The notes below the pieces were generated by a model. The model was not told where the DNA came from and made no database searches. It saw only the letters and a list, made by a program, of their open reading frames with translations. A DNA stretch of 64,000 bases from Dehalococcoidia bacterium (GTDB lineage Bacteria > Chloroflexota > Dehalococcoidia > SM23-28-2). A program made the position numbers and the translations under genes. The DNA lies in NCBI GenBank assembly GCA_034429995.1, contig DAOUEZ010000033.1, forward strand, positions 22,294 through 86,293. Reading direction: 5' to 3'. Position 1 is the first letter of the stretch; every line of letters begins with the position of its first letter. Positions 16,205 through 54,159 of this stretch are shown here, piece by piece.

Positions 16205-16240
16205 GAGCATGGCGAATCCGCCGATGTCGAGGGGAGTTGC

Positions 16241-17257: not shown

Positions 17258-17267
17258 GAGCGAGACG

Positions 17268-26870: not shown

Positions 26871-26873
26871 GGC

Positions 26874-28508: not shown

Positions 28509-28649
28509 ATACGCTCCTCCAACCCACAGGGACCACAAGTGGCGTCCGAGGGACCACCTGCTCGCTTTCACAGGACATCCTGAATATACTATTGGCTTAG
28601 CTCTCAGGCAAAGCCGATGACTGCTGGAGGGCTGGGGGGAGTGACCGCC

Positions 28650-29849: not shown

Positions 29850-29887
29850 CCACGGGCCAGGTGAGGCGGGCGTCTATGCAGCCAGGT

Positions 29888-31051: not shown

Positions 31052-33668
31052 CGTGACCCCTCCTGACAGGCGGCCGAACCTCACTGGCCCTTGAAGCCAT
31101 TATAGCGATGCGCTGCCACCAGGCAACAGCCTGGCCGCTGACCCGCAGAACGAAGGGTTGATGGTGCCCAGCCGCCTCCCCGTCGCCACCCCGGCTAGGC
31201 CGAGAGGTGACCTGCCGACGAGGCGGCGAAGAGTCCGGCCCTCAGCGGAGGACGCAGCCCCTAGAGCACATCCTTTCGCTTCCGGGCGAGGAAAGGCGGC
31301 CTTTGCTTGCGACATGGCCTAGCCCTCGAAGAAGACGGTGAACAGCGCCTGCTGAGGAAGGGTCAGGCGCACCGATAGCAGGCCGTCGGGGCGGCGAGCC
31401 ATGCTGGCTGCGGGCGCATCGCTCTCTAGCCTCTGCTCCTGGTAGGGCGGCGGCACGTGGATGATCACCTCGCCCTGCTTCTTGGCGGGCGGCGTCAGTC
31501 GCACTGTCAGAGCCCGCTGAGCGGCGTCAAAGCGGGCGTCTTCGATCTCGACGGCGCCCTGGCTGAAATGGAATGTGCTCGATACTATCTGAGGTTCGTT
31601 GGTGGCCGGGCGCAGGGAGAGGAGCTTGGCCGAGTGGGGCGGCATGACCGAGAGGCGAATCTCATGCTGGTGCACACCGAAGTAGCAGTCCTGCCACAAA
31701 TCGAAGACGTGGACGGGCTCGGCGGGCAGGGGGACTGTCACCTCGCTGGGCTCATCCTCCCACTGGAACACGCCCAGGAGCCACCACCGCTGGAAGGAAC
31801 GCTCGATGGCGAGGCGAAGGAAGCGAGGGAACGAGCGCTCGAAAAGGTCCAGGGGAATCGCCGAGGAGCCGTAGGGCGGCAGGAGGAGGCTGGCGATCTG
31901 CCACCGCTCGGGCGGCAGCTTGGGCATGGCATCGCTGAGGACGACCATTCCGCCGCTGAGGGCAATGGCAGTGGCCAGGGAGTGCACCTCGTCGAGGGAG
32001 AGGGCGGTCTCGCTGTCCCGAGCGAGCAGGCAGTCGGGGTCGTTGAGCCAGAGACGGCCGTGCGTCCAGAAGCGGTTGACGACGTTACGGATGGCGTTCT
32101 CGCAGGCGGGCAGCGACTCGACGGGTTGCCGATTCACAGCGGTGACCTCAAGCGGAACCAGCTCGCTGGATAGCCGCCAGTAGGGCGCCACGTCGGGCCC
32201 GATACGCTGGGCGTTGACCAGACCAACGGACGGGCCGAGGGGGGCACCGCAGCCCAGGATGAAGGCGTCGCTGGCCCCCCGGCGGATGGCTTCCAGGCCC
32301 CGCCGGTAGGCCTGGGCGCGAGTGGCCTGGCGGTCATAGCGCCTGCCCTCCACAGCGCCGGCGTAGATGAAGTCCAGCTTCAGATAGTCGAAGCGGCATT
32401 GGCCTACCAGCGTCTCGGCTACATGATCCAGCCAAGCCTGAGCGCCGGGATGGGTGCAGTCGAGGGCATAGCACTCCTTGCCCCAGTTGTGGATGGCCAC
32501 CACCGGCCTGCCGGCGCCGTCGCCCACCATCCACTCGGGGTGCTCGCGGTAGAGAGCGGAGGTGGAGGCGGCCAGAAAGGGAGCCAGCCACAGGCCAGCC
32601 TTAAACCCTTTGTGGTGAATGCGTTCAGCGAGCCAAGGCAGGCCGTGGGGAAACTTGTCGTTGGTGGTGACCCAGTCGCCTATGTCCGCCTGGTAGCCAT
32701 CGTCAACCTGGATGTACTCCACAGGCAGCTCATCACGATGAGCGTGCAGGAACTCCAGATTTTCCAGCACCGCCTGTTCGCTCACACCGCCGAAGTAGTA
32801 GTACCACGAGGACCAGCCGCTGGGCACGTGCTGCCAGCCCAGGGCACCCATCTGGCGGCCCAGAGCATCGCCGTAGCGAGCCAGGGCGTCCAGGGGCGGT
32901 CCCGTCACATCGACCAGCAGCTTCTCCGACGAGAGGCTCTGCCCAGGCGCGACGGTGAGGCCATCGGCGTAGGACACGGCAGATAGGGTGCGGGACGCCT
33001 GCCTGCCGCCGGGCAGCTCCAGGCGGACCTGGGAGAGCTGATCGGCGGCGGTGATGAAGCCGGCCAGGAGTGAGGCGCCGGTCGTCGGGTCGGCCACCAG
33101 GCCCACGAGGTCGCTGGTGAAGCATCCCTTTTGGGGGGTAGCCGAGGACGGCCCGATAATCGGCGAGGGAGCCGGCGGGTCATCCTGGGCGCAGCTCAGG
33201 CTAAGCGTGGGGCTCCAGGACTGCCAGCCGTGCTTGTAGAACTGCCAGCGGCGGCAGGAGCGGCCCAGGCCGAGGCGGCCGCGGCCAGCAGTCGGCGTGG
33301 CCAGCACCCGAAAGCTCGCCACGCCTATAGGCTGCGAGGAGCCGTTGACCAGTTCCATCTCCATGACGGCGAAGGGTTGGCCTTCGTACAGGGTCAGAAA
33401 TAGGCGGAGCCCAGGGCGATCCCGGACGGCAAGGGTAGACAGGCGAACGGTGATGCCTTGGCCGTGGACGTCGCTGAGCGGCTGGACGTCGTACTCTTTG
33501 CGGAAGCCACTATCCAGGGTGCTGACGACATCGCCGCCCACCAGCTCCACGGCGGCATGGGCTCGACGGATGACCGTTCGGCCAGCGGAACGATCTCTGA
33601 AGGCCAAGCTGCCCCGGTCGAGCCGGCAGCGCACCTCCAGCCACCGATTGGCTATCAGCAGGCCATAT

Positions 33669-39606: not shown

Positions 39607-42477
39607 TTAACCGGGCCGCAGGAACTGATTTCCGAGCGTCTCCAGCTCCACCCCCGGCCGCTCCCATGCTAAGAACACCCGGGAGAACCACGTCCTCCCC
39701 ACGTACTGCACCTCGATGTCGTGCAGCCCCTCCTCCAGCCGCACACCCCCCTCCGCGACACCTGCTTTTTCCACACTCACCACCTTGCTCCCGTCGATGA
39801 TCAATGTTGACTCGTCGATGGAGTCCAGCCGGAAGCGATACTGCCCACTGCTCGGCGCTAGCAGCTTCCCTGTCCAGCGAACGCTGAAGGGCTCGGGCAA
39901 CGGCGGGTCATAAAAACGGTATGCCACAAATGGGTCGATCTGCTCCAGCACTGGCTGCCCCGACAGCCCCGCTCCCTGATAGTAGCGCCCGAGCAATCCT
40001 GCCGCTGTCACTGGTGGGCCGAACAGAGCCGAGGCCGGCACCGCTCCCCACGGCACCGACTGGCTGCTCCAGTATAACCGTACCCGTCCAAGCTCCTCGA
40101 TTTGTGCCGCCACCTCCAAGTCATGGATGCCCCGCGCCAGACTGCCCCGCCATTCGGCCCGGCCCGTCCCCTCGGCTAGGAGCTGCCCGTCCAGCAGAAG
40201 TCGTGCCCTCCCTGGCGCCTCCACCCCCAGTGCGTACTCCTCGAACCCGGGCACCTTCAATACCCCTGACCACGTTGCCGAGAATGGAGGCTCCAGCGGC
40301 GCCTGTTCCGACCAGTCGAAGTCCACCGTCGCCGCCCGCTCCTCGACCTCTTCCCCTCGATCCGCCATCGACACGTACCTTGCGTCCAGCCCCTGCGCTC
40401 TCCGCACGGCGCCGGCTTCGATGATGGCTTCATACACCGTCGCCAATCCCTCCTGGGCCGACACCTTCGGCGGTCGAAACTCCTGAAGTTGCGCCGTCGG
40501 GTAGTACTGGCTCAGCAGACGGAACGTCTCCCAGGCTTCCCAGTCGAGCAGGAAGACGGTAGGCTGCTCCCCACCGATGGGCACATCCTTCACCAGCTCC
40601 AACGCCTTTGCCCGCTCCGGTTCGTCCGCCACGAACAGCAGCGTTGGGTGCCCCGTCATCATCGGCGATATTAAGAACTGATATGTGTCCCCCAGGCGGT
40701 TCATCTCCTTCGCTGCAATGGTCTGTTCAGGTGAGAAGCAGGCCCACACCGCCGTGTCCTCTAACTGCTTGTTGAAGAAGGTATCGTAATTCCGCTCCGC
40801 TACCAGCGAGAGCAGCGCCAGCAGCCCCACCACCGTCCCCCCCAGTAGGATCAGCCCCACTGACCGACTCCGCAGTGTTGTCAGCGCCAACCCTGGCAGA
40901 CGCCAGCCATGTCCGTCCAGCGTCGCTGCCTCCTCCTGCGCCCGCTGCTCCGACGCCAGACGCCATGCCAGCCACAATGGCACCGCCGCCGCCAGCGCCA
41001 CTCCCGGCGTCACCAACAGCGACCGCACCGCATGCGGTGCCTCGGTCTCGGCCGTCCCGATCCCAGCCCAGAGCGGGACCGCCACCCACAGCAGGATCAA
41101 GAAGTAGCCCGGCCGCCGGACATTGTACAGGCTGATGCCCAGCCCGAGCACAAAGGCGATCCCGGTGAACGTGTCTAACATCGGCGCCCACGGCAGATTG
41201 TGCCGACCGTTTCGGTCACCCTCTGCGTTGAACATGAGCGCGTGCCTCTTCGTGTTGCGCAGCAGCGCTTCGACGGTCTCGACGGTCGAATTCCCCTCGG
41301 TGATCGAGACCGCGCTCGCCCGCTCCGTGAACTCCGACGGATGCTGCGTCGCCCAGGCTGCGACGGGCGAAAAGGCCGCGAAGGCCGCCAGTGCCAGCAG
41401 CGCCATCCCGATGAAGGAACGGCGCAGCTTCACCGCCCGCTGGAAGATAGCTGTGTGCGCCCAATACAGCACCATGATGACGGGCACCAAGTACACCGCC
41501 CAATAGAATTGCAGCCCCAGCCCCAACAGGAGACCCGAAGCCAGGAAGTTCGGCCAACTGCCCCGCTTCAGCCCCCGCACAAGGAAGTACATGCTCGCGA
41601 CCACGAACAGCGGTGAGAAGATGGGCTCCGTAGCGATGCGGCTGAAGTTGACGTGCCAGCGCATCACGGCAAACAGGAACGTGGCTATGCCAGCGAGCCG
41701 AGTATCGAAAAGCTCCCGCGCCAGCAAGAACACGAAGGGGATCGTCAGGATCGCTCCCACCGTCGTCGCCGCCCGCAGGGACAGGATGTGCCGCCCGAAG
41801 AACTGTATTGCCCCGGCGAAAACGTACAGTGGCAGCGCCGCCCGATTGGCTCCCCAGACTCCTGTGATGAATACCGGGCGATAGCTGCTGTCGTCCAGGA
41901 TCCGCTCGGCAATGATCCCGTTCTCCGCCTCGTCTAGCCACACCCCGAAGGGATGGCTCGACAGCAGGTATGTCCGAAAGGCAATTCCGAGCCCCAGTGC
42001 CACGAAGAGCAGCCAGTATCGCCCGACGAGGCCCCACGCCCGCTCGACCAGCGGCAGCCTCGGATACAGATGCGAAACATGTGCGATAGGGCTTGCTCTC
42101 GGAGCCTCGGCCTCTGAGAAGTGGTGCCCCGCAATCGCTGCGATCGCCAACCCCGTCGCGATCGCGAATAGAATTAACCCCTGGCGCAAGTCCTCGGCGC
42201 CCTCTGTCGCCGCCTGCGCCAAGTACCCCACGCCGAAAGCCGACGCTAGCACCAGCAGCCGGACAGGAAAGCCCACAGGCGAACCCACCAGCCGTACGGC
42301 CGGGCCCCAGCTCTGACCCGAAAGACTGCCGCCTTGGCCGAAATAGCGAGGGCGTCTCATCGACTGTCCCGCTCCATGCTCGCCGCCCTCGACGTACCGT
42401 CCCTCCAAAATTCCGGCAGGGCCGCCGGGCGGCCCACTGGTTCTGGAATTTGTGCGCTTCGCAGTTTTCGTGACCAC
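39607..42477 (-). CDS. Polytopic membrane GT-C fold glycosyltransferase (ArnT/PMT GT39/GT83-like) with a large C-terminal extracytoplasmic region containing tandem PA14 domains.
   Basis: DE motif 'WLDEAENGIIAERIL' in the first extracytoplasmic loop. More than 10 predicted TM helices. C-terminal 'GLLGRYYQGAGLSGQPV...FSVRWTGKLLAPSSGQYRF...IDG...ERPG' matches PA14 domains. Candidate promoter TTGACA-N17-TACTGT 60 nt upstream supports ATG 42477. Confidence 0.6.
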   Translation of the reverse strand: MVTKTAKRTNSRTSGPPGGPAGILEGRYVEGGEHGAGQSMRRPRYFGQGGSLSGQSWGPAVRLVGSPVGFPVRLLVLASAFGVGYLAQAATEGAEDLRQGLILFAIATGLAIAAIAGHHFSEAEAPRASPIAHVSHLYPRLPLVERAWGLVGRYWLLFVALGLGIAFRTYLLSSHPFGVWLDEAENGIIAERILDDSSYRPVFITGVWGANRAALPLYVFAGAIQFFGRHILSLRAATTVGAILTIPFVFLLARELFDTRLAGIATFLFAVMRWHVNFSRIATEPIFSPLFVVASMYFLVRGLKRGSWPNFLASGLLLGLGLQFYWAVYLVPVIMVLYWAHTAIFQRAVKLRRSFIGMALLALAAFAAFSPVAAWATQHPSEFTERASAVSITEGNSTVETVEALLRNTKRHALMFNAEGDRNGRHNLPWAPMLDTFTGIAFVLGLGISLYNVRRPGYFLILLWVAVPLWAGIGTAETEAPHAVRSLLVTPGVALAAAVPLWLAWRLASEQRAQEEAATLDGHGWRLPGLALTTLRSRSVGLILLGGTVVGLLALLSLVAERNYDTFFNKQLEDTAVWACFSPEQTIAAKEMNRLGDTYQFLISPMMTGHPTLLFVADEPERAKALELVKDVPIGGEQPTVFLLDWEAWETFRLLSQYYPTAQLQEFRPPKVSAQEGLATVYEAIIEAGAVRRAQGLDARYVSMADRGEEVEERAATVDFDWSEQAPLEPPFSATWSGVLKVPGFEEYALGVEAPGRARLLLDGQLLAEGTGRAEWRGSLARGIHDLEVAAQIEELGRVRLYWSSQSVPWGAVPASALFGPPVTAAGLLGRYYQGAGLSGQPVLEQIDPFVAYRFYDPPLPEPFSVRWTGKLLAPSSGQYRFRLDSIDESTLIIDGSKVVSVEKAGVAEGGVRLEEGLHDIEVQYVGRTWFSRVFLAWERPGVELETLGNQFLRPG

Positions 42478-42543
42478 AGGAGAGGCAGAGCGACCGTCCC
42501 TCCCCCCCAGCCAAGCCAGAAGTCGCCCACGGAGATGGCTAAA

Positions 42544-42571
42544 CAGTAACTGGCAGGGGGCAGGTTGTCAA
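42544..42571 (-). promoter_or_regulatory. Candidate sigma70-like promoter (minus strand TTGACA-N17-TACTGT) for the GT-C/PA14 gene.
   Basis: Minus-strand 'TTGACAACCTGCCCCCTGCCAGTTACTGT', 60-90 nt upstream of ATG 42477. Confidence 0.35.
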
Positions 42572-42597
42572 AGGAGCGCTGCTGAACGGAAACGCCT

Positions 42598-42720
42598 CCC
42601 GAGGGGCCCTTTTCCGTATCTGGAGTCTGGAGGGTCGGGGGGGATTCGAACCGACGACTCCTGCATTGAGAGTCAGGAGTTCTTTCGCTGAGTTAGCAAC
42701 TCAACGGCATCAACCGTCGC
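42598..42720 (-). repeat. Copy B of the conserved noncoding element family (tRNA-like T-arm/acceptor-CCA at the minus-strand 3' end). Shares a 3' tail with copy D. Ends in a 6-bp hairpin 'CTCCTG...CAGGAG'.
   Basis: Minus strand '...GGAGTCGTCGGTTCGAATCCCCCCCGACCCTCCAGACTCCAGATACGGAAAAGGGCCCC'. ~40-nt block nearly identical to copy A ('GGAGTCGTGGGTTCGAATCCCACCCGGCCCTCCAGA'). Confidence 0.5.
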
Positions 42721-43007
42721 CAGTGGGGACACGAGATGATGTAGCACTCGACCAAGCGAGCCCCGACGACCTGCTTGGAGGGAAGAAGGTCACCCCGAAA
42801 CGCAGGCCTAATTGTTAACCCCTTAGATTCAAAAATCGGGATGGATTTCGAGGGCATGCGGCCGGCGGCGGCCGAACCCTCACCCCAGGCGCTCGCCCAT
42901 CCGGTCCGCCGGGCTTAACCGCACCATGCGCTGCTTATTCCCCTTGCCATGGCGAACCTGAATGCGCTGGCTCTCGAAGTCTACGTCCTTGAGTCGAAGG
43001 CTGTCGC

Positions 43008-44231
43008 CTACAGGGTAAGCTCAACGCCGCTGAGGGAGAGTTCCTCCTCTGTGACCATCCTCAATGGGGGGGCGGCGCTGACATCCATTCCGGGCTCGTA
43101 CTTGAAGATGGGGGCGAGTTGCCTATTGAGCATGAAGATCAGGCGGGACAACGGGATCTCCACAGGACAGGCATCCTCGCACTGACCGCAGTTCACGCAG
43201 GAATCCATGACGTGTACGGCCCGGATCATGTGGAACATGGCGTCAGGCGGGATCTCGCCCCTGGGCACTACGCCTCTGTCTGCCTCCAGATAGCAGTCCT
43301 TGCAGTAGCAGATGGGGCAGGCGTCCCTACAGCCAAAGCACTTGGTGCACTGGCTGAACTGGCCGGAAGGTCCGAACCAGTAATCGAACCGCTCCTCAAG
43401 ACTCATCGCCTGGAACTCGCCGAAATCTCTCTCCTGCCACTGCCGCGCCAGTTCGGTGGCCGCCCTGTCCTGTGCTCTCCTCGATTCGAGGGCCTCGGCG
43501 CTCGGCTGCTCCACTTTGATGTGGCCGCCTTCGACCGCCCTGTCGATGAAGTCGGCTCCTCTCTCGGAACAGACCTCTATGAACGTGGCCTCCCTACCCT
43601 CTGCTCCCCACTTCCCGCAGGCTATATCCGCCATGGTCGGGATGTTGATGTCGCATCTGCGGCAGTTCTCCCTCCGCCCGAGCCCTTTGGCCTCCAGCTC
43701 TGCCAAATCCCTTTCTTTCTCGCTGCCGTCCCGCAGCCTTATCTTCAGCTTGTCGTCCTCGATGTCCTCACTGGCAACATCGAAGGGATCCACGCCGAAT
43801 TCCTCTTCCATCATCCGCTGGGCTACCACCGGACGCATGGTGCCGGTGCAGTTCAGGCCGATGAGGAGTACATTCTCAAGGTTGATCTGGTTGCGCTTGA
43901 CCAGCTCGATGATCGCCTTGGCGTCGCACGGCTTGCAAGTCACGGCTACCCTCAAGTCGGAAGCACCGTCGAGGAATTCCTTGAGGCAGCGGGCCATGTT
44001 GGGGGAAACGCAGTGCAACGCTCCTGCCGTCGCCGCTACCTCTTCAGGATCATCGATCAGCACAGGGATGCCATCATACCTGTTGCCATCTCTTGCCTTG
44101 ACGGCAAGCACGGCATCGACCTGGTTACTCTCCAGGGCAAACTTGAGGAGCGAGGTAACCGCACCCCCGCTTTCGGCCCTGTCCACTATTGCCGGGTCTG
44201 GGGACCAAGCCCAGTAGGTATCCCCCTTCAT
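43008..44231 (-). CDS. FrhB/FdhB-family (coenzyme F420 hydrogenase/dehydrogenase beta-like) subunit with C-terminal 2x[4Fe-4S] ferredoxin domain; formate dehydrogenase beta subunit.
   Basis: N-terminal FrhB_FdhB-like region. C-terminal 'CTKCFGCRDACPICYC...CVNCGQCEDACPVEI' cluster motifs. Immediately downstream of fdhA. Confidence 0.65.
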   Translation of the reverse strand: MKGDTYWAWSPDPAIVDRAESGGAVTSLLKFALESNQVDAVLAVKARDGNRYDGIPVLIDDPEEVAATAGALHCVSPNMARCLKEFLDGASDLRVAVTCKPCDAKAIIELVKRNQINLENVLLIGLNCTGTMRPVVAQRMMEEEFGVDPFDVASEDIEDDKLKIRLRDGSEKERDLAELEAKGLGRRENCRRCDINIPTMADIACGKWGAEGREATFIEVCSERGADFIDRAVEGGHIKVEQPSAEALESRRAQDRAATELARQWQERDFGEFQAMSLEERFDYWFGPSGQFSQCTKCFGCRDACPICYCKDCYLEADRGVVPRGEIPPDAMFHMIRAVHVMDSCVNCGQCEDACPVEIPLSRLIFMLNRQLAPIFKYEPGMDVSAAPPLRMVTEEELSLSGVELTL

Positions 44232-44233
44232 GC

Positions 44234-46258
44234 CTACACCTCTTCCTTGACGGCGCACACCTTGAACTCTGGCATCTTGCTTTTGGGATCAAGAGCGGGG
44301 TTGGTGAGGATGTTGGCGCATGACTCCGAGAAATGGAAGGGCACAAATATGGACCCTTGTGGCACACGGCCGGTCACCTTGGCGGTGACCTCTATCCTCC
44401 CTCGCCTTGTCTCCAGGGTGATCCGACTGCCGCTACTGATGCGCAACCTGGTGGCGTCCTCGGGGTTGATCTCGGCGTACGCTTCAGGCACCTCGCTGTT
44501 CAGCGTATCTGTCCTCCGGGTCATTGTCCCTGTGTGGTAATGAAAGAGATTCCTGCCGGTGATGAGCACGTCGGGATAGTCTGCGTCCGGCACTTCCGCC
44601 GGAGGCTTGTACTCCACCGCCTGAAAATGACCCAGCTTGTCAGGCGTGCCGAAGGCCTCAACGAACATGGTAGGAGTGCCTGGGTGGTCCTCGGAAGGGC
44701 AGGGCCACTGAATGCCCCCCGCCTTCTTCTCCAGTCTCTCGTAGGTGATCCCCTTGTATTGGGGGACGCAGCTCCTGATCTCTTCGAATATCTCTCCCGC
44801 CGAGGCATAGTTGAACTTGTCCTTGTAGCCCATCTTCTCCGCCACTCTGCAAATGATCCACCAGTCGGGCATGGCCTCGCCGGGAGGGTCGATGACCTTG
44901 TTGATCTTCTGCACCCTCCTGTCCACCCAGGCGTGGATGCCTTCTCTTTCTACCCAACAGGCAGCTGGCAGCACCACGTCGGCGTGCTTGGCTGTCTCGG
45001 TCAGGAATATGTCCTGAACCACGAAGAAGTCGAGGTTATCCAGAGCCCTCTTGACGTTCGTAGAGTCGGGGGCAGCCATGACGGGGTTTGTGCCCACTAG
45101 GTAGATAACTTTGCATTTGTGAATAATGTCCATGTAGGTAAGGCCGGGTTCAGTGGGTAGGTGCTCTACCCCCCAGGCGTTCTGGAAGAACTCGGCGGAT
45201 TCCTGGCCTACTTGCTTGAATCCGGGGTAAAAGACATTGACGCAGCCCATGTCCCCTGCGCCCTCACCGTTGATCTGCCCTCTCATGGGGTTCACACCGG
45301 TCCCCGGCTTGCCGATGTGCCCGGTCAGAAGGGCCAGGTCGGCGAGGGCCGCCACATTGTCTGAGCCGGTGGTGTGCTGAGTGATGCCTTCATCAAAGAG
45401 GATGCAGCCCCTCTCTGCCTTGGCGTAGGCGATAGCCGCCTCTTTGATCTTTTCCGCTGCCACGCCGCTGATATCTGCGGCCTGCTCAGGGGAGGTGGCG
45501 GACAGAGCAGCGCGAAGCTCATCGAACCCCGCAGTCCTCGTCTCAATGAACTCTTTGTTCTCAAGGCCCTCGGCAAGGATAGCGCTCATCATGCCGTTGA
45601 TGAGCGCTACATCCGTGCCCGCTTGCAGTTGCAGGTGGAGGTCGCCCAGGTAGCTCACGGTCACGGTCCTTCGGGGGTCTATGACGATGACCGTGGCCCC
45701 CTTCCTCTTGGCCCGAAGCACCTTCTTGGCGATCATGGGGAAGGTCTCTTTGATGTTGACGCCAGCGATGAGTATGCAGTCGGCCCGCTCGATGTCGAGC
45801 TGGGAGGTCTCCATGGTGCCCGAGCCCACCGTGGGCAGGAGGCCGGCCACCGACGCCGAGTGGCAGAACCTGGCGCAGTATTCGATGCTGTTGGTGCCCA
45901 TGATGACCCGGGCGAACTTCTGCAGGACGTAAGCTTCCTCGTTGGTGCCCTTGCCGGAGGCGATGGCACCGAAGGACTCCGGCGGAACCCCCTTCAGCTT
46001 CTCGGCGACGAGGCTCAGCGCCTCTTCCCAAGAAGCCTCCCTGAACGTCCCATTCTTTCGAATCAAGGGCTTCTTGAGCCGATCGTCACTGTAGAGGAAT
46101 TTGTAGGCATTTTTCCCCTTGGGACAGTTTGTCCCTTCGTTGACCGGGTGTTCCTTCCACGGTTCCTCGCCCACTATCCTCCCGTCTTTCAGTACGAGGT
46201 ACATTCCGCAGCCGCAACCGCAGTAGGGACATATCGTCGGCACATATTGCAGATTCAC
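44234..46258 (-). CDS. fdhA: Molybdopterin (bis-MGD) formate dehydrogenase catalytic subunit, Cys-type (no in-frame TGA).
   Basis: N-terminal 4Fe-4S 'CPYCGCGCG'. 'ARFCHSAS' active-site region with Cys. MopB and C-terminal molybdopterin dinucleotide-binding regions. GTG start overlaps the upstream stop (GTGA). Confidence 0.85.
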   Translation of the reverse strand: MNLQYVPTICPYCGCGCGMYLVLKDGRIVGEEPWKEHPVNEGTNCPKGKNAYKFLYSDDRLKKPLIRKNGTFREASWEEALSLVAEKLKGVPPESFGAIASGKGTNEEAYVLQKFARVIMGTNSIEYCARFCHSASVAGLLPTVGSGTMETSQLDIERADCILIAGVNIKETFPMIAKKVLRAKRKGATVIVIDPRRTVTVSYLGDLHLQLQAGTDVALINGMMSAILAEGLENKEFIETRTAGFDELRAALSATSPEQAADISGVAAEKIKEAAIAYAKAERGCILFDEGITQHTTGSDNVAALADLALLTGHIGKPGTGVNPMRGQINGEGAGDMGCVNVFYPGFKQVGQESAEFFQNAWGVEHLPTEPGLTYMDIIHKCKVIYLVGTNPVMAAPDSTNVKRALDNLDFFVVQDIFLTETAKHADVVLPAACWVEREGIHAWVDRRVQKINKVIDPPGEAMPDWWIICRVAEKMGYKDKFNYASAGEIFEEIRSCVPQYKGITYERLEKKAGGIQWPCPSEDHPGTPTMFVEAFGTPDKLGHFQAVEYKPPAEVPDADYPDVLITGRNLFHYHTGTMTRRTDTLNSEVPEAYAEINPEDATRLRISSGSRITLETRRGRIEVTAKVTGRVPQGSIFVPFHFSESCANILTNPALDPKSKMPEFKVCAVKEEV

Positions 46259-46710
46259 GATGCTGCCCTCCTGAATGGGCTCGGCCCGAGCTGCTTGAGG
46301 GTCTCGACGAAGCTAGTGACGGTTTCCACCACCTTCGGCCCGTCGGAGGTTGAGATCCACTCCAGCCTGAGCCTGTCGCCGCCGATTCCTACGGCCTCGA
46401 GGAAGGGCTTCAAGCCTACCACTCTCCTCCTGGCGCTCAGATTGCCGCTATGATAGTGGCAATCTCCCGGGTGACAGCCGCAGACCAGGACGCCATCTGC
46501 GCCCAGTGCGAACGCCTTGAGCACCAGCCGTTCGTCTACCCTGCCAGAGCACATCACCCTGACTATTCTCAGATTCGGTGGGTACTGCAATCGCGCTGTG
46601 CCTGCTACATCGGCCCCCGCGTAGGAGCACCAGTTGCAGAAGAACCCCACTATGGTTGGCTCAAACCCGTTCGTTCTTGCCTCAACGTCATCCATGACTA
46701 TGCCTTTCAC
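46255..46710 (-). CDS. MvhD-like (methyl-viologen-reducing hydrogenase delta subunit family) iron-sulfur electron-transfer protein.
   Basis: 'FFCNWCSYAGADVAG...RVMCSGR...LVCGCHPGDC' Cys pattern of MvhD/FlpD. Confidence 0.7.
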   Translation of the reverse strand: MKGIVMDDVEARTNGFEPTIVGFFCNWCSYAGADVAGTARLQYPPNLRIVRVMCSGRVDERLVLKAFALGADGVLVCGCHPGDCHYHSGNLSARRRVVGLKPFLEAVGIGGDRLRLEWISTSDGPKVVETVTSFVETLKQLGPSPFRRAAS

Positions 46711-46838
46711 ATCGACGCTGCTTGGTCAGTCTGACCCGCGTATTCAGGCCCAGACTTATGGACGTATGCCCATAACATCCTAGGCAAGCAGGCGCTAAGG
46801 GTCAAGCCTCTTCTGGAGGTTGTCAGGAAGGTATTCGC

Positions 46839-47606
46839 CTAGAGCTCCGGCCTCCGTCGGCGTGTCTCTGCGACATCGATAGGCGTCACTTCGGGCCTGG
46901 GAGCGTCGTAGACGGTGACTACATTCGGAAGCCTGCCGAACTCCTCCCGTATCGCAGCCATCTCGTCCGCCGTCAAAGGCTTGACCGGGCAGGGGCGTAG
47001 CGGAGTGTTGATCTGCACCTCATCGGGGGACAATCTGCTGGCGATGGCGGCCAATCTGCCTGCGGCCTCTCGGTTGGCCTCAACGAACATGATCTGGAGC
47101 GCCAGCTTTCCCTTGTACGTTGCCCTGAAGAGCTCGATGGCCTCCACGATCTCCGCCAGGGAGAAGCGGGCCACCGGCCTGTTGATCCGCCGGAACAGTT
47201 GCTCATCGGGGGCGTCCAGCTTGGCAACGACCACGTCGGCACAGGCCAGGTCCCGCCGCACATCTTCCCGTGCCATGAGCGAAGAGTTCGTCAAGACCGC
47301 GCTAGGCAGACCTAGCACATCCCGAGCCAATCGTAGGGCGTCCCCCAGGTTGCTGGCCAGGGTGGGTTCGCCCATTCCTGAGAAGGTAACGTAATCAGCC
47401 GCTATGTTCCTGGCTGCCTCTAGCTCGCGAGCCAGAACACTCAGAGCGACGAAGTCGGCCCGCACCGTCAGCCGCCGCGCCGTCCTACCCAACTGGCAGT
47501 AGATGCAATCGAAGGAGCAAGTCGTCCCGCCAGCGGGCAAAAGATCGACGCCGAGCGACCTTCCCAGTCGCCAGGACGGGACAGGGCCGTAGAGGATCGA
47601 ACCCAT
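46839..47606 (-). CDS. Radical SAM domain protein (CxxxCxxC); candidate maturation/activation factor for the downstream Fdh-MvhD module.
   Basis: 'CSFDCIYCQ' cluster motif 30 aa from the N-terminus. 'GMGEPTL' SAM-binding motif. 255 aa. Confidence 0.55.
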   Translation of the reverse strand: MGSILYGPVPSWRLGRSLGVDLLPAGGTTCSFDCIYCQLGRTARRLTVRADFVALSVLARELEAARNIAADYVTFSGMGEPTLASNLGDALRLARDVLGLPSAVLTNSSLMAREDVRRDLACADVVVAKLDAPDEQLFRRINRPVARFSLAEIVEAIELFRATYKGKLALQIMFVEANREAAGRLAAIASRLSPDEVQINTPLRPCPVKPLTADEMAAIREEFGRLPNVVTVYDAPRPEVTPIDVAETRRRRPEL

Positions 47607-48036
47607 TTCCTTACTTTATGGTCGCCTCAGGGGCCCTGCCCGCCGAGCCCGCGTCTACCGCCCGGCCCTCGCAAGGCAGGGCCAGCAGGCCGAACGGGGA
47701 GCACGCTTGCGCTATCGCAACGCAGGCAAGAACCTCTGCCGGCTTGAAGTAGGCCACCTGCGGCATAAAAGCCACCCGTTGCCACTTGGTTGATCTTGGC
47801 GCGGCGTAGTATCAAGCAAGTTATGAAACTATGTCCATAATCACTTTACCACCAAGCACATGCGTTGTCACCGGGTTTGGAGGCCGGAGAAATTATCGCT
47901 GCCACGTTGAGGCAGCTCGCGGAGGCTCCCGCTCGTGGCAGACCCTGTCAACTCGTTCTGACTGACCGAGTCGACGTTCCCTGAAGTATAATGACCCGCA
48001 GGACATGGCTGTCTTAGTGGCAGAAGGGGAGACCTC

Positions 48037-48687
48037 ATGCAGGCTCTCGACCTAGAGCAGGCCGAGCGCTATGAAGCTTGGTACACCACTCCTTTCGGTC
48101 GGCGAGCGGATCGAGTGGAGAAGGAGATGCTGCAAGGGCTCCTGGCAGACTTTGGTGAATCTCACTCCCTCCTTGAGGTGGGTTGCGGCACTGGGCACTT
48201 CACGGACTGGTTCGCTTCTCTGGGACTACCGGTGATGGGCCTCGACCGGCTTCCTTCTATGTTGACCTTCGCTCGAGACCGGCGGCCCGATCTCCCTTTC
48301 GTGCTGGCTGACGTCGCCCATCTCCCGTTCGGCGAGGCGGCCTTCGATGTCGTGGCCTTTGTCACGGTACTCGAGTTCTTGGACGCCCCTGAGGCAGCGT
48401 TGCGGGAAGCCGAGCGGGTGGCCCGCCACGGGCTGATCCTGGTGAGTCTCAATCGCCTCAGCCCGGTAGCTGTGTGGCGCCGGCTTCGGAGGGCGGCCTC
48501 CTATCGCCGCGCCCGCTTCCTCTCACCTGGCCAACTGGAGCGCCTGGTTCGCAATTCCCTGGCATCCCGACCGATGACGATCCGCTGGCGCACAGGCCTC
48601 TACCCTATGCACTGGCTGGATCAATGCACGGCTCTCCCCTTTGGTGCCTTGGTCGCCCTGAGCGTTCGATTTGAGGAAGGAGGCTGA
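48037..48687 (+). CDS. Class I SAM-dependent methyltransferase.
   Basis: 'LLEVGCGTGHFT' motif I. Acidic motif II 'VLADVAHLPF'. Confidence 0.7.
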   Translation: MQALDLEQAERYEAWYTTPFGRRADRVEKEMLQGLLADFGESHSLLEVGCGTGHFTDWFASLGLPVMGLDRLPSMLTFARDRRPDLPFVLADVAHLPFGEAAFDVVAFVTVLEFLDAPEAALREAERVARHGLILVSLNRLSPVAVWRRLRRAASYRRARFLSPGQLERLVRNSLASRPMTIRWRTGLYPMHWLDQCTALPFGALVALSVRFEEGG

Positions 48688-49071: not shown

Positions 49072-50715
49072 TCACTCCAGCACCGCGCCCTTTGCGGCCG
49101 AGCTCACCAGCTTGACGTAGCGCCGCATGAAACCGGACGGGATCTCCCGTTCCACGGGCTTCCAGCCCTTCAGGCGGTTCCTGATTTCCTCGTCGTTCAG
49201 CTTCACCTCGAGCTTCCTGGCCGGGATATCAATGAAAATCTCGTCCCCGTCCCTCACGGCGGCAATGGGCCCGCCGACATAGGCCTCAGAGGAGACATGG
49301 CCAATGCAGGGACCGGCCGTGGCGCCTGAAAACCTACCGTCGGTGATCAGGGCCACGCGCCTGAAGCCAGCCAACTCCAATCCCAGAGTCACCGCCAGGG
49401 TCTCCGCCATCCCGGGGCCGCCCTTGGGCCCTTCGTTCCGGATCACGACTACCTCCCCCTCCTGGATAGTCCTTTCCCGGATGGCCTTCAGGCAGTCGTG
49501 CTCCGACTCGAAGACGCGCGCCTTCCCGGAGAAGACAAGCATATCCTTGGCGACAGCCGATTGCTTCACTACAGCGCCCTCCGGCGCCAGGTTCCCCGTT
49601 AGAATGACCGTACTCCCCTCCGGCATATGGGCATTCGCCTTGTCAGGAATGATCGTCTCATTCAGGATAACAGCCCCGTTGATGATATCACCGGTGGTCT
49701 TACCGGTGACGGTGAGGGCGTCGAGGTGGAGATCCTCTGCCAGCCGCCTCATTACCGCGGGAATGCCCCCGGCCATGTAGAGGTCGGTGACGCCATAAGG
49801 CCCGTTGGGCGATATGGCGCAGAGGGTGGGGATTCTCTTGTTGAAGTCGTTGAAGACCTTCAGCGGGAGGTCGAAGCCGACCTCATGAGCCAGAGCCGGC
49901 AAGTGAAGGGTGGAATTCGTCGAGCCGCCGATGGCCAGGTCTACCATGACCGCGTTCTCGATGGCCTTGGGAGTCAGAATCTTGTCCGCTGTGAGCTCCT
50001 CTTCCACCATCTCCACGATCCGCTTTCCCGCCATCCGAGCGAAAAGGAGCTTCTCCACATGATAGGCAGGGACGTTCGCCGAACGGGGCAGGGAGAGGCC
50101 CAACGCCTCGGTGAGGCACTGCATGGTGTTGGCGGTTCCCATCAGCTCACACGCACCGCAGGTTGCGGGCGTGGCCGTCGCGAGCTTGTCCCCCAGGTCC
50201 TCGTAAGAGTCGCGGTCGACGCTCCCCTTAAAGGTGTTCTTGAAGCGGATGCTCCATGCGCTGGGACCGCCCGTGATGAAGATGGCGGGGAGATTCAGCC
50301 GGGCCGCCGCCATCAGCATCCCAGGGACGATCTTGTCGCAGCCGGCAATGAACACGACACCGTCGTACATCATGCTTCGCACGTGGGTTTCGACGATATC
50401 CGCAATCAGGTCCCGCTGGGCCAGGACAAACCGCATCCCCTCATGCCCCTCGGTGATCCCGTCGCAGGGGGCTGGCACGCTGAACTCGAAGGGGATGCCC
50501 CCAGCAGCATGCACCCCTTCCCTCACCCGCTGGGCGATGGTGTCCAGGTGCATATGGCCCGGGTTGATTTCCGTCTGAGAATTGGCGCTGGCGATGATGG
50601 GCTTCTGCTTCCCCTCCTCGATATCGATCCCCGTACCCTGGAGAATGCACTTGCGGACTAAGCTGATAGGGAAGTCTTTGTCATCAAAAATAAGATTACT
50701 CTTGGGTTTCTTCAC
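49072..50715 (-). CDS. IlvD/EDD-family dehydratase (short type; sugar-acid or dihydroxy-acid dehydratase).
   Basis: 'PCDGITEGHEGM' and 'CDKIVPGMLMAAARLNLP' Fe-S cluster ligand regions. 547 aa. Confidence 0.8.
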   Translation of the reverse strand: MKKPKSNLIFDDKDFPISLVRKCILQGTGIDIEEGKQKPIIASANSQTEINPGHMHLDTIAQRVREGVHAAGGIPFEFSVPAPCDGITEGHEGMRFVLAQRDLIADIVETHVRSMMYDGVVFIAGCDKIVPGMLMAAARLNLPAIFITGGPSAWSIRFKNTFKGSVDRDSYEDLGDKLATATPATCGACELMGTANTMQCLTEALGLSLPRSANVPAYHVEKLLFARMAGKRIVEMVEEELTADKILTPKAIENAVMVDLAIGGSTNSTLHLPALAHEVGFDLPLKVFNDFNKRIPTLCAISPNGPYGVTDLYMAGGIPAVMRRLAEDLHLDALTVTGKTTGDIINGAVILNETIIPDKANAHMPEGSTVILTGNLAPEGAVVKQSAVAKDMLVFSGKARVFESEHDCLKAIRERTIQEGEVVVIRNEGPKGGPGMAETLAVTLGLELAGFRRVALITDGRFSGATAGPCIGHVSSEAYVGGPIAAVRDGDEIFIDIPARKLEVKLNDEEIRNRLKGWKPVEREIPSGFMRRYVKLVSSAAKGAVLE

Positions 50716-51174
50716 AACGGCCTCCTGCTCAAACGCTTATGAACACCTTCCCGTCGCCATTGACATCACCCACAGCCACTGACCGCCCAAAGTAGGCGTC
50801 TACCTGGGGGTTAGGGATATCCTAAGTGAAGATTGGGCTATGATTCCAATCCCAATGCATTGCTCCATGGACGTCTCTGTGAGATCTCCTCATCGGAAGA
50901 GAGCAAACCTAGCATGAAGGAATCGACACACTACGCTTTCACGTGGAGAGAGCGGCTGAGCGGTCTTATCAAGGCAGCGAGCCGGGCAAGATCGTTCATG
51001 GTCCTGGATTCGACTTATGAGTCATAGGCAAGAATAGCACATTAGGACAGAGGCCGGGTTTGCAGATGTCGACAACATTCGCTGCACGACATTAGCGCCG
51101 GAGCCAAACAGGTAGAGAGCCTGCCTCAGAAGCAGAAAATCATCGGTCGGCGATCAGTGCCGTCAGGCGACCCG

Positions 51175-51299
51175 GATTGTCAATCAGGACGTGCTGGCCA
51201 GATGGATCATGCGGGCGGGTACCCCACAGCCTCGTGGCTAGCCCAAATAGCTCAGCACGTCAACCCTCCAGATATGGCTAACATTTTGGCACCCCACAG
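51175..51299 (-). repeat. Copy C of the conserved noncoding element family; lacks the tRNA-like T-arm portion. Sits at the edge of a low-GC island.
   Basis: Contains 'ttgtcaatcaggacg', 'ggctagcccaaatagctcagcacgtcaaccctcc' and 'ttggcaccccacag' blocks shared with A and D. Confidence 0.45.
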
Positions 51300-51334
51300 G
51301 TATATGATCTGAAGATGGTAGCGAGGGGCCGGGG

Positions 51335-51988
51335 ATGCATGCTTATTATCCAGAGTCGAAGGTTGAAGTCACCGGGTTTATAGCAAAACATTATGATCTA
51401 GTAATGGATATTATAACGTTGGGTAAGTATTCTTCTTTCATACGAAAAGCTGTTCGATTAATGGCAATTAGGCCAGATGATAAAATTCTTGATTTAGGGG
51501 CAGGGACAGGTAGGAATGCCTGTTTGATGATGAGATATCTTTCTGCAAGAGGAGAATTGGTAGCACTTGATATCTCTGAAGAGATGATTTCGCAATTCAA
51601 AAAGAATTGCGGCCATTTTTCCAATGCTGCAATCATCAATAAGAGGATCGACCAGGATCTAAGCTATGAAGGGTATTTTGAGAAGGTTTTTATTTCTTTT
51701 GTGTTGCATGGATTTCCTCAGGAGGCTAGGGACCAGATTATTAGGAATGCCTTTAAGGCATTAAAAAAGGATGGGACATTTTTTATCCTGGACTACAATG
51801 AATTTTCGCTAAAAGAAATGCCTTTCTATCTAAGGATTCCTTTTAAACTCATAGAGTGCCCTTACGCGTTTGATTTTATCGAAAAAGATTGGAAAGAGCT
51901 ATTGTCCTCGCAAGGGTTCAGCAATTTTAGGGAGCATCCCTTCTTCGGCGGTTATGGACGATTGCTTAGCGGGGTAAAATCGATATGA
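51335..51988 (+). CDS. Class I SAM-dependent methyltransferase, encoded in a low-GC (~40%) island.
   Basis: 'ILDLGAGTGRNA' motif I. AT-rich codon usage contrasts with the rest of the window. Confidence 0.65.
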   Translation: MHAYYPESKVEVTGFIAKHYDLVMDIITLGKYSSFIRKAVRLMAIRPDDKILDLGAGTGRNACLMMRYLSARGELVALDISEEMISQFKKNCGHFSNAAIINKRIDQDLSYEGYFEKVFISFVLHGFPQEARDQIIRNAFKALKKDGTFFILDYNEFSLKEMPFYLRIPFKLIECPYAFDFIEKDWKELLSSQGFSNFREHPFFGGYGRLLSGVKSI

Positions 51989-52485
51989 TAGAGCAACTGA
52001 GCTTTAAGTTGAAGCGGATTGGGGTCATTCGCACCCCGTATATAGACAACGCACCATATCAGCCGCTGGATGAAGCCAAAGGAGATTTCCGTGTAGTCGT
52101 TGATTCCCAATATGCGGACGGGCTTTATAAGCTTGCGAAATTCCATTATATCTACGTCATCTATTACATACACCACATTGTGCGAAGATTGTCAATGATT
52201 GTATCTCCTCCATGGGCCGGCGGTGCGAGGGTTGGCCTGTTTGCAAGCAGGTCACCAGTCCGCCCAAATCCCATTGGTCTTAGCGTTGTTCGCATAAAAT
52301 CCATTGTAAATAACGAAATCCACACATCAGGCTTGGACGTGTTTGATGGAACCCCGCTTCTTGATATCAAACCCTACATAAACGATCTGGATTCCAAATG
52401 TGATGCCAATTATGGCTGGATTGAAGAGATGGATGACAAGGAACATCTCCTTTTACATATCAAGGGTATTCCTCATGACTACTGA
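51985..52485 (+). CDS. TsaA/TrmO (YaeB, UPF0066)-like SAM-dependent methyltransferase domain protein.
   Basis: 'IGVIRTPY', 'FHYIYVIYY', 'GLFASRSPVRPNPIGLSVVRI' and 'DGTPLLDIKPYI' match TsaA family motifs. ATGA overlap with the upstream methyltransferase. Confidence 0.65.
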   Translation: MIEQLSFKLKRIGVIRTPYIDNAPYQPLDEAKGDFRVVVDSQYADGLYKLAKFHYIYVIYYIHHIVRRLSMIVSPPWAGGARVGLFASRSPVRPNPIGLSVVRIKSIVNNEIHTSGLDVFDGTPLLDIKPYINDLDSKCDANYGWIEEMDDKEHLLLHIKGIPHDY

Positions 52486-52681
52486 GATAATGCAGATGAG
52501 AGCAACTTCATATAACGGCGAGTATGCGGTTCGCTTACGCTCGGTCAAGTCCCGGAAGTTGTTGAAATTGGTTGAAGGGCGGCTCCCCTCCAGATACGAT
52601 TCATGTCCTGCGCGACAGCAGCAAAGATGCGCAGGACCGATGTGGGTGGTCAGCAACTTTCGGAATCTGTATAAGCAGTTC

Positions 52682-53623
52682 CTAATGGACACCTGGAGGC
52701 TTGCTCTTGCTCCCCAGGAGGCGATAGCGTATCGCCCAAGGGAAAGGAGCAGGCAATGCCACAGGAACGTCCTCCAGGGGATAGTCGGAGCCGGGCCACC
52801 AGAACTGAAGCTCATCGAGCGTATCGCCGAACTTCTCCGTTACGAAATCGAGATCAGGCCTGGGACCACAGAAATGGGTTGTAACCGGCACATCGCGGCC
52901 CATCACCTCTCTGACCCTCTCTTTGATCCTCTCCAGGCCCTCCATCTCCAGCCGGGCTATCTCCTCCTTGAACTCCGGGAGGGCGAGGTCCTTATCCAGG
53001 CTGGCGAAACCGTAGTTGATATTCGTTAGCCTGTCTTTCCAGGGCTCAAGGCTGCCCAAGTAATAATCTACGGTCCAATCCATCATCACTCTTTCTACCG
53101 CCCCGAAGACGGCTTCCGGAAAGAGGATCAGGTCCCTCAGGGCCTCTTTTACTCCCACTAGGAGGGCAAGGTTGGACACCGGCCCATAGCCTCCCTGCCT
53201 GAAGGCGACTTTGTCGCCGATTTCGTCGGAAACGATCTCGGAGGCCTTGGCCAGCACTTTGGCTCTCTCTCCTGCGAAGGGGTCGCGATATTCGAGCTCC
53301 TCGTAGACCTTCGGGTCGGGCCTCGTGCGGTCGGCGAGCGTCTTCTTGGGGTAGATGAGGCTGTCAGTGATGTAGACCTCCACCCCGTACGGCTCCAACG
53401 CCCACCACAGGTCGGAGTTCACCACGGACACGTCCGTCTTGTACTTCTGCACGTACCTGATGTGGCCAAGGGCTATCTTATCTGGATCGAAAGCAAACTG
53501 GCGCATGGAAACGCCCGACAGAGCCAGAGCCAGGTCAACCGACCAGTGCAGGAGCGGCACCTTGTCGGGCGTCTCTCCATGCAGATAGCACAGTAACCTT
53601 TCTGCCCCCGTCATCTCAGCCAT
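52682..53623 (-). CDS. URO-D-fold MtaA-like methyltransferase homolog. 313 aa (somewhat short); possibly decayed.
   Basis: 'ERLLCYLHGETPDKVPL' N-terminus resembles MtaA-like enzymes at 28650 and 29888. The opposite-strand ORF 52400..53029 was judged spurious. Confidence 0.4.
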   Translation of the reverse strand: MAEMTGAERLLCYLHGETPDKVPLLHWSVDLALALSGVSMRQFAFDPDKIALGHIRYVQKYKTDVSVVNSDLWWALEPYGVEVYITDSLIYPKKTLADRTRPDPKVYEELEYRDPFAGERAKVLAKASEIVSDEIGDKVAFRQGGYGPVSNLALLVGVKEALRDLILFPEAVFGAVERVMMDWTVDYYLGSLEPWKDRLTNINYGFASLDKDLALPEFKEEIARLEMEGLERIKERVREVMGRDVPVTTHFCGPRPDLDFVTEKFGDTLDELQFWWPGSDYPLEDVPVALPAPFPWAIRYRLLGSKSKPPGVH

Positions 53624-53970
53624 TAGACTCCCTCCCTAAGTTCGCGCAGCAATCTGTTCGCCTCTTCCACCGCCTGGGGAGCGTTTGGGGCCCAGCCATC
53701 GGCTCCTATCTCCGCCGCCCATCTATCGGAGGTTACGGCGCCGCCGACGATGACCTTAAGGTTGTCTCTCAGGTCTCTGGCCTGCAGCATCCCTATCGTC
53801 GCTCTCTGCAAGGGGAGGCAGGCTATGATCATGCTGGCCAGAGCCCGCTTTGCTGCCGCCTCGGCCTCAAAGTAGTTGAAGGCCAAGAAACTCTCGACTA
53901 TGTCTTCTAGATGTTGTTTCATATCCTGCTCCAGCTCTTGAACCTCCGCTGGTGCTCTTCGGCAGCCCAT
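53623..53970 (-). pseudogene. Remnant of a cobalamin-binding corrinoid protein. Cap helix plus C-terminal half of the Rossmann domain; DxHxxG segment missing.
   Basis: 'KVIVGGAVTSDRWAAEIGADGWAPNAPQAVEEANRLL' parallels 'KVMIGGAPVTSAFAQDVGADGYAPDASSAVALARRLV' of 25206..25841. Only 115 aa and no His-ligand motif. Confidence 0.4.
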
Positions 53971-54159
53971 TCTAATCCCTCCACGCTCTCCTTGGGAAGG
54001 CCGCCTGCTGGAGAGAACTGCGAGAAGTCGAGCAGGCGGGGCCTGAATCCGGCATCATCAACGCTCTGGCTTCTGGCTCCTATGGCTAGGTGGTATTATC
54101 GGAGAGGCGGCTGGAATGGCTGGGGCAACACGAGCAAGCACGGCTGGTGGGAACTAAGT

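Follow-up and report, generated by a model that had tools for sequence, protein, structure and literature searches.

Formate dehydrogenases (Fdh) that are linked to heterodisulfide reductase (Hdr) form a class that was defined in Methanococcus maripaludis, solved in Methanospirillum hungatei (Fdh-Hdr-Fmd; PDB 7BKB-7BKE) and M. maripaludis (Hdr-Vhu-Fdh; PDB 9T1S), and varied in the Elp-Hdr complex of Methanothermobacter marburgensis (ElpABC-HdrABC; PDB 8RVU; Nomura et al., 2025, PMC12350162). In the solved methanogen complexes, FdhB or ElpB holds flavin adenine dinucleotide (FAD) and four [4Fe-4S] clusters, and the FAD site of FdhB can oxidize F420H2, the reduced form of coenzyme F420 (Nomura et al., 2025, PMC12350162). 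In bacteria, an Hdr-associated formate dehydrogenase (HdrBCA-MvhD-FdhBA) has been predicted for the marine Chloroflexi DscP3 and Dsc4 and for Desulfobacula toluolica (Sewell et al., 2017), and a bifurcating Fdh for Desulfobacterium autotrophicum (Poudel et al., 2018). Here, we analyze the genes mvhD, fdhA and fdhB, and a radical S-adenosylmethionine (rSAM) gene beside them, in a 64,000-nucleotide stretch of DNA from a Dehalococcoidia bacterium (assembly GCA_034429995.1, contig DAOUEZ010000033.1, positions 22,294 to 86,293), which is referred to below as the window. The mvhD-fdhA-fdhB genes are probably a self-contained operon for a bacterial counterpart of the FdhAB-MvhD electron-input arm of methanogens, which would dock onto Hdr, with the rSAM gene as a neighbor.

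The window encodes the same three subunits as the complexes of M. hungatei and M. maripaludis. Both FdhA and FdhB align with the solved proteins over their full length, FdhB keeps its FAD motifs and enough cysteines for four clusters, and MvhD keeps its conserved cysteines. The window differs in its bacterial host, in the gene order mvhD-fdhA-fdhB, in that no Hdr partner was seen in the 83 kb of contig that were read (the window and about 9.5 kb past each end), and in FdhB, which has an acidic residue for the Lys in the 'IDKGK' loop and an extra invariant cysteine, Cys205. The acceptor used by the methanogens, the heterodisulfide CoM-S-S-CoB, cannot be the acceptor here, and the supply of F420 is uncertain. 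The Elp complex is alike in that a subunit with FAD and [4Fe-4S] clusters feeds HdrA via an MvhD-type connector, but ElpA is truncated, lacks the pterin domains and has no formate dehydrogenase activity, whereas FdhA of the window is full length, with three Pfam domains and a Cys-His pair.

The bacterial systems of Sewell et al. (2017) and Poudel et al. (2018), which we compare by their descriptions, are alike in that FdhAB is encoded with mvhD and the assumed partner is Hdr. In those clusters the hdr genes are adjacent and FdhA contains selenocysteine, whereas the window has Cys at this position and no hdr gene in the 83 kb; of their FdhB, the description says no more than that it is an iron-sulfur protein, 40% similar to that of Desulfobacula. 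The module is widespread and already described, and no earlier view is overturned. It is the host organism, a Cys active site, an unlinked partner and clade-specific substitutions in FdhB that set the window apart.

A Probable Three-Gene Operon for FdhAB and MvhD

The window proteins were surveyed with Pfam over nearly all open reading frames (ORFs) and with NCBIfam at curated cutoffs, and the flanks were read from a 130,480-bp contig of the Joint Genome Institute (JGI), in which the window occupies positions 15975-79974 at 100% identity. Related loci (L numbers) were collected by a scan of species-representative genomes for FdhB, and in all of them ORFs were called and clustered, and recurrent clusters were annotated with Pfam. 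Counts refer to 80 loci for hdrA, to 79 distinct loci for the rSAM gene and its cluster, and to 52 informative loci, which have enough upstream sequence, for the order of mvhD, the position of which was corrected by tblastn.

The original prediction had placed four minus-strand ORFs in an operon with overlapping starts and stops. All four ORFs were recovered from the ORF list at the limits that it gave (Table 1), and its domain calls for all four were confirmed by Pfam and NCBIfam. The overlap is real between mvhD and fdhA, where the GTG start of fdhA overlaps the mvhD stop (GTGA), while the ATG of fdhB lies 2 nt past the fdhA stop and the rSAM and mvhD genes are 128-143 nt apart. The choice of this ATG for fdhB gives a protein of 407 amino acids, the same length as in all homologs. 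The order mvhD-fdhA-fdhB, with mvhD immediately upstream of fdhA, is kept in 49 of the 52 informative loci and across several phyla. Against a four-gene operon, mvhD has its own promoter-like site, which is kept in L006, and the usual home of the rSAM family is a different conserved cluster. We conclude that the unit of transcription and function is three genes, mvhD-fdhA-fdhB, not four. On its 3' side, fdhB is followed by a PMT_2/PA14 glycosyltransferase gene.

FdhA is a cytoplasmic Cys-type enzyme, as had been proposed. It scores 805 bits against TIGR01591 (cutoff 666) and contains the Pfam domains Molybdop_Fe4S4, Molybdopterin and Molydop_binding. No twin-arginine motif or signal is present in FdhA, the N-terminus of which reads MNLQYVPTICPYCGCGCG; a cluster motif, C10-x2-C13-x3-C17...C45, is found, as is the catalytic pair Cys132-His133, in 'RFCHS'. 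The active-site Cys-His is invariant in all 58 adjacent FdhA orthologs. A search against PDB sequences identified 9t1s_L (E 2e-222, full length) and 7bkb_D (5e-191) as the closest solved chains.

MvhD is a genuine homolog of the Hdr connector, with a match to PF02662 (FlpD) at E 2.5e-52, five conserved cysteines and 62% identity to ElpC. Its closest solved chains are 8rvu_F, which is ElpC (4.6e-52), and 5odc_D (1e-48).

FdhB and Its FAD Site

FdhB has the FrhB/FdhB fold that had been assigned to it (PF04422, FrhB_FdhB_N; PF04432, FrhB_FdhB_C), followed by a C-terminal Fer4 dicluster domain (Fer4_8). The closest solved chains are 7bkb_E (FdhB of M. hungatei, 3e-107), 9t1s_M (3e-101) and 8rvu_E (ElpB, 1e-92), with identities of 44-46% to the solved relatives. 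The solved FdhB/ElpB chains scored 314-362 bits, whereas no other chain of the FrhB family (FrhB, Fsr, HCAR and the FrhB-like subunits of Ethanoperedens) exceeded 59 bits. This places FdhB of the window in the FdhB/ElpB branch of that family. The label "F420-type" of the original prediction is valid in this sense, as a statement of homology, and the clustering with sulfite-reductase-like groups that was named there, together with a lack of F420 biosynthesis genes, as grounds for giving it up was not found.

The elements of the FAD pocket are kept, namely GGAVT (residues 22-26), TAGALHC..N (68-78) and IGLNCTGT (124-131). Cys102, 128, 190 and 193 correspond to the FrhB cluster ligands Cys104, 134, 192 and 195, and FdhB also keeps Cys74, Cys99 and the cysteines in the runs 295-313 and 345-355, where the C-terminal block reads CxxCxxCxxxCPxCxCxxC...CxxCxxCxxxCP. 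Overall, 16-17 cysteines are conserved. The predicted cofactor set, and its putative occupancy, is FAD plus four [4Fe-4S] clusters, as in FdhB/ElpB of the methanogens, and not the two clusters proposed earlier.

Two stretches set a bacterial and Asgard clade apart from the solved methanogen proteins. Residues 155-161 and 201-209 (window positions 43605-43769) read 'EDIE(D/E/N)xK' and 'ADIACGKWG' in this clade, and 'EEIDKGK/Q' and 'ADIAAGNWG' in the solved methanogen FdhBs. Since the F420 density reported for FrhB (Mills et al., 2013) was later attributed to noise (Allegretti et al., 2014), the FrhB loop is unusable as a firm residue-level test for F420. A rough neighbor-joining tree places FdhB of the window within the Chloroflexota clade, to which the two methanogen FdhBs do not belong. 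A search with FdhB recovered more than 120 protein clusters at 68-100% identity, of which the named ones are from metagenome-assembled genomes (MAGs) of Dehalococcoidia or Chloroflexi.

The Pfam survey identified no genes for F420 biosynthesis (cof/fbi) in the 83 kb. The contig also carries, about 7.0-7.4 kb past window position 64000 (L090 1877-2218), a gene for a 113-amino-acid protein of the FDOR-A type (PF04075, F420H2_quin_red; 48.3 bits, cutoff 22), which hints that the source organism uses F420. According to a review of F420, FDOR enzymes occur in Actinobacteria and Chloroflexi, the Chloroflexi make F420, and F420-reducing formate dehydrogenases (Ffd) are known only from Euryarchaeota.

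The Presumed Hdr Partner and the Distribution of the Module

Neither the window nor the roughly 9.5 kb read on either side yielded an hdr gene, in agreement with the earlier remark that hdrABC is not adjacent. This absence is no anomaly: just 20 of the 80 related loci have an HdrA-like sequence at a distance of 10 kb or less from the triplet, and hdrABC is often not co-localized with fdhAB, a separation described as common by Poudel et al. (2018). An unlinked hdr is typical of the Hdr-linked Fdh class.

The 80 loci are mostly from Dehalococcoidia and Anaerolineae, and the rest are from Desulfobacterales, Asgard archaea (Borrarchaeum, Thorarchaeota), Alkanophaga, Thermoplasmata and others. Linkage to hdrA takes several forms (Table 1). 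In L004/L064, L009, L014 and L038, hdrA is split into two genes that flank nuoE and nuoF, one for an N-terminal fragment (residues 1-255) and one in which the C-terminal part is fused to a NuoG-like Fer2_4/Fer4 N-terminus. We regard this arrangement as a possible NADH-linked variant of the Fdh-Hdr system.

From the solved methanogen complexes and the hdrA linkage in relatives, we infer a physical complex, a direction of electron flow, its acceptors and a reaction at the FAD site, as follows. Formate and CO2 would be interconverted in the cytoplasm at the Cys-ligated site of FdhA, which carries Mo or W on bis-pyranopterin guanine dinucleotide (Mo/W-bisPGD), and the electrons would pass from the [4Fe-4S] cluster of FdhA along the chain of [4Fe-4S] clusters in FdhB to the [2Fe-2S] cluster of MvhD. 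Through MvhD, the arm would dock onto an HdrA-type flavoprotein whose gene lies elsewhere in the genome, and flavin-based bifurcation at this flavoprotein would yield reduced ferredoxin and a higher-potential product. The path could also run in reverse and reduce CO2 for the Wood-Ljungdahl pathway, of which no core gene was identified in the window. The FAD site of FdhB would serve as a conserved side entry or exit for a hydride carrier, either F420 or another.

Several observations weigh against this reading. The partner is assumed and was not seen in the 83 kb, and the five closest relatives (L003, L005-L008) also have no hdr gene within 10 kb. Genes for NuoE/NuoF-like proteins, mvhAG or metVF stand beside the triplet in some relatives, and the partner of the FdhAB-MvhD arm may therefore differ between lineages. 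The FdhB clade has an acidic residue for the first Lys of the 'IGKGK' loop of FrhB ('IDKGK' in methanogens) and the extra invariant Cys205.

In automated annotation, FdhB is given the name "F420 hydrogenase/dehydrogenase beta" or called hypothetical, and metabolic reconstructions of subsurface Chloroflexi then count it as a hydrogenase or ignore it. Recognition of mvhD-fdhA-fdhB as an Hdr-docking arm would provide a concrete route from formate/CO2 to low-potential ferredoxin in abundant sediment bacteria. The large family would also offer a bacterial system in which to ask what HdrA-type complexes reduce without CoM-S-S-CoB and what reacts at the FAD site of FdhB.

The Radical SAM Gene and the DUF134-Headed Cluster

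The protein encoded upstream of mvhD is a small CxxxCxxC radical SAM protein, as had been noted, with the motif CSFDCIYC at residues 30-37. The three cysteines (C30-x3-C34-x2-C37) are invariant in 31 homologs, which share no other invariant cysteine, and the generic PF04055 is the sole Pfam match. The family is very large and highly conserved (6349 homologs at E <= 0.001 among 8000 candidates scored) and is labeled by JGI via COG as "wyosine synthetase." The original prediction had suggested that the subfamily be identified with hidden Markov models, which did not succeed, as no NCBIfam model reaches its cutoff. The candidates rejected were the tungsten-cofactor maturase W_rSAM_matur (TIGR04317; 36 bits, cutoff 380), MoaA (TIGR02666; 25, cutoff 284), TYW1 (TIGR03972; 24, cutoff 318) and CofG/CofH (no match at E <= 1e-3).

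The search against PDB sequences returned viperin alone, at E of about 0.008. With an AlphaFold2 model (pLDDT 79.5), Foldseek matched viperin, LipA and PFL-AE, with E-values down to 2.7e-9, but these are generic radical SAM cores alone, with a partial TIM barrel, TM-scores of about 0.6 and sequence identities of 13-21%. The CxxxCxxC motif and the partial TIM barrel are shared with small COG0731-type radical SAM proteins and with the nearest solved folds (viperin, LipA, PFL-AE, MoaA, TYW1), and the window protein is without an auxiliary cluster domain.

The spacer between the rSAM gene and mvhD contains the promoter-like site and, just after it, the imperfect palindrome listed in Table 1. It is conserved with L006 from the -35 box to the mvhD ATG, and the similarity stops upstream of the box. 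In L006, the gene upstream of mvhD is a divergent methyltransferase gene and the rSAM gene is located four genes further upstream. A search with Rfam identified nothing on the whole window at the gathering thresholds or on 42400-48200 at E <= 1, so that known RNA elements such as the Moco riboswitch are not involved.

The rSAM gene closes a conserved cluster, with no fdh adjacent, in two distant genomes, one a complete genome of 2.66 Mb and the other a MAG. The order is DUF134 - DUF5320 - two MinD/CbiA-Fer4 ATPases - Zn_ribbon_8 - AF_2379 - NifX-like - Mrp/NUBPL - DUF4213/DUF364 (or NifU) - rSAM - metallo-beta-lactamase. The cluster often abuts mvhD-fdhAB in Dehalococcoidia. In L003, the FdhB of which is 87% identical to that of the window, it encloses mvhD-fdhA-fdhB, and a 79%-identical rSAM gene is located downstream of fdhB, after DUF364; DUF364 also follows fdhB in L005, L006 and L008. 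Of the 79 distinct loci, 8 have a copy of the rSAM gene no more than about 11 kb from fdhB, and 12 have other members of the cluster there. In the literature on DUF364, DUF134 and radical SAM proteins, we found only work on azetidine-carboxylate synthase, which has a different DUF364 context.

A search with tblastn identified no DUF364, NifX-like or Mrp gene in the window. Directly upstream of the rSAM gene there is, however, a DUF134 remnant that keeps the N-terminal motif alone ('RVAFxPQVxYFKPA', here 'KWQRVAFMPQVAYFKPA'), at the place of which a 51-amino-acid gene is called in L001. This remnant marks the rSAM gene as a survivor of a DUF134-headed cluster, and the gene is probably a separately promoted bystander left by rearrangement. 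On the 5' side of the rSAM gene region is a divergent methyltransferase gene. The cluster is found beside the fdh triplet more often than expected by chance, which leaves room for a looser link to metal or cofactor handling. The recurrent DUF134/NifX-like/Mrp/DUF364/rSAM cluster might be a metallocofactor system that serves the fdh operon, which would be a weaker novelty.

Alternative Explanations

If the four genes were one unit after all, the rSAM protein would be a dedicated Fdh maturase for the pterin or an Fe-S cofactor, in place of FdhD/FdhE. The gene adjoins mvhD in the same orientation, its family is found near fdhB at the above frequency and in several arrangements, as compared to about 1% expected for a single-copy gene, and its best NCBIfam match, a weak one, is to the tungsten-cofactor radical SAM maturase. 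That match is far below the cutoff (36 versus 380 bits), however, and the fold search returned a generic radical SAM core; about 90% of the fdh loci have no rSAM gene, and where it occurs its position and orientation vary. Together with the conserved promoter-like site of mvhD itself, the place of the family at the end of the DUF134-MinD/Fer4-NifX-like-Mrp-DUF364 cluster in distant genomes and the DUF134 remnant that precedes the gene here, this makes a maturase role very unlikely. The other explanations concern the triplet. FdhAB could be a free-standing bacterial Ffd, which would reduce F420 at the FAD site of FdhB and feed F420H2-dependent reductases, with MvhD accessory or vestigial. FdhB is in a branch whose methanogen members react with F420, its FAD-pocket motifs are intact, the PF04075 FDOR-A gene (48 bits, cutoff 22) is on the same contig, and the Chloroflexi are F420 producers according to the F420 review. 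A vestigial MvhD is difficult to reconcile with an mvhD that directly precedes fdhA in 49 of 52 loci and with the 62% identity of its product to ElpC, which indicate a working connector. The loop that has Lys in FrhB and methanogen FdhB is acidic in the clade of the window, no cof/fbi genes were seen in the 83 kb, and Ffd has so far been listed for Euryarchaeota only. The same FdhB clade is also present in Desulfobacterales, which to our knowledge are not known to make F420. We consider a free-standing Ffd unlikely.

The arm might instead serve another flavoprotein than the classical HdrABC. The candidates are a NuoE/NuoF-like module that is linked to NADH and includes a chimeric HdrA, and a MetFV methylene-tetrahydrofolate reductase complex. 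The loci with nuoE, nuoF and the Fer2_4/Fer4-HdrA fusion gene directly upstream of mvhD (L004/L064, L009, L014, L038) and those with metV-metF directly downstream of fdhB (L026, L029, L034) point in this direction, as do the HdrABC-MvhD-MetVF clusters of marine Chloroflexi (Sewell et al., 2017). Neither the window nor its flanks contain NuoEF-like or metVF genes, however, and the NuoEF-linked loci keep HdrA-derived domains and a CCG (HdrB-like) protein, so that they vary the Hdr system and do not replace it; such a partner seems quite improbable for the window. Docking of the arm onto an Hdr-type protein is the explanation that we prefer. A further proposal, that the archaeal-type FdhAB-MvhD of subsurface Dehalococcoidia is a genuine F420-reducing Fdh that joins formate both to the F420 pool and to Hdr-type bifurcation, is doubtful; if it holds, Ffd would for the first time be known beyond the Euryarchaeota, and an anaerobic bacterium would be using F420 in catabolism.

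Neighboring Genes and Other Features

The coordinates of the features in the window and the genes that recur beside the triplet in related loci are listed in Table 1.

TABLE 1. Features of the fdh locus in the window, and genes beside the mvhD-fdhA-fdhB triplet in related loci.
Feature	Position	Strand	Remarks
fdhB	43008..44231	-	407 aa from ATG (ORF 43008-44258); FrhB-type FAD domain, cysteines for four [4Fe-4S]
fdhA	44234..46258	-	674 aa; cytoplasmic Mo/W-bisPGD formate dehydrogenase catalytic subunit, Cys132-His133
mvhD	46255..46695	-	146 aa from ATG at 46695 (ORF 46255-46710); [2Fe-2S] connector
Imperfect palindrome ATGGGCATACGTCCAT	46773-46758	-	Just after the promoter-like site
Promoter-like TTGACC-17-TAGGAT	46805-46777	-	From consensus scan; in the rSAM-mvhD spacer; putative function
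rSAM gene	46839..47606	-	255 aa; PF04055; COG0731-type uncharacterized family, probably outside the fdh unit
DUF134 remnant	47611..47796	-	51-aa ORF 47611-47766; tblastn with DUF134 proteins of related loci, E 3.5e-5
DUF134-to-rSAM cluster	L085 605-10581; L086 1101-8777; L003 2342-13321		Recurrent in anaerobes
Full Sec-interrupted hdrA with hdrB/hdrCB	Directly upstream of mvhD		L033, L036, L048
HdrL-like proteins, 1270-1500 aa (NfnB/GltD-like part fused to HdrA-like part)	Upstream		Desulfobacterales loci
nuoE, nuoF and chimeric HdrA	Directly upstream of mvhD		L004/L064, L009, L014, L038
mvhD-mvhG-mvhA-hycI	Downstream		11 loci
metV-metF	Directly downstream of fdhB		L026, L029, L034
mobA-mobB-moaB-moeA	Downstream		Four loci
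Divergent CsoR/FrmR-like repressor gene	Upstream		21 loci

In loci with a divergent CsoR/FrmR-like gene, a palindrome, 'ATACCCC-N4-GGGGTAT', overlaps a TATAAT box about 100 nt upstream of mvhD (L010, L016-L018, L020, L024-L026, L029, L032, L034, L041, L042, L044, L046, L047, L051, L053, L056). It is likely an operator, which suggests that the fdh operon is under metal or aldehyde control in many relatives. In the window, the palindrome is a different one (Table 1), and no CsoR/FrmR-like repressor gene lies beside mvhD.

A corrinoid methyltransferase system is encoded at 25206-31084 and 52682-53623, with a B12-binding protein, an S-methyl_trans/MtrH-like methyltransferase, a RACo activator and two URO-D/MtaA-like proteins; its methyl-group metabolism could feed formate to the Fdh. 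The window has a G+C content of about 62%, and an island of low G+C at about 50000-54000 (0.52-0.55 versus 0.62), with a methyltransferase gene (G+C of 0.39 at third codon positions) and a TrmO-like gene, may have been acquired horizontally. A hopanoid/squalene set on the plus strand (10575-19972) consists of two SQS_PSY proteins (HpnC/HpnD-like), an HpnE-like amine oxidase, a LytB-UPF0047 fusion and a squalene-hopene cyclase. The left flank, 9.9 kb before position 1 (L087 1-9884), encodes heme genes of the siroheme route, namely two AhbC/AhbD-like radical SAM proteins, a NirDL/AhbAB-like-aminotransferase fusion and ALAD, as well as an acetyl-CoA synthetase and a nitroreductase. Transporter genes are also located in the flanks of the window.

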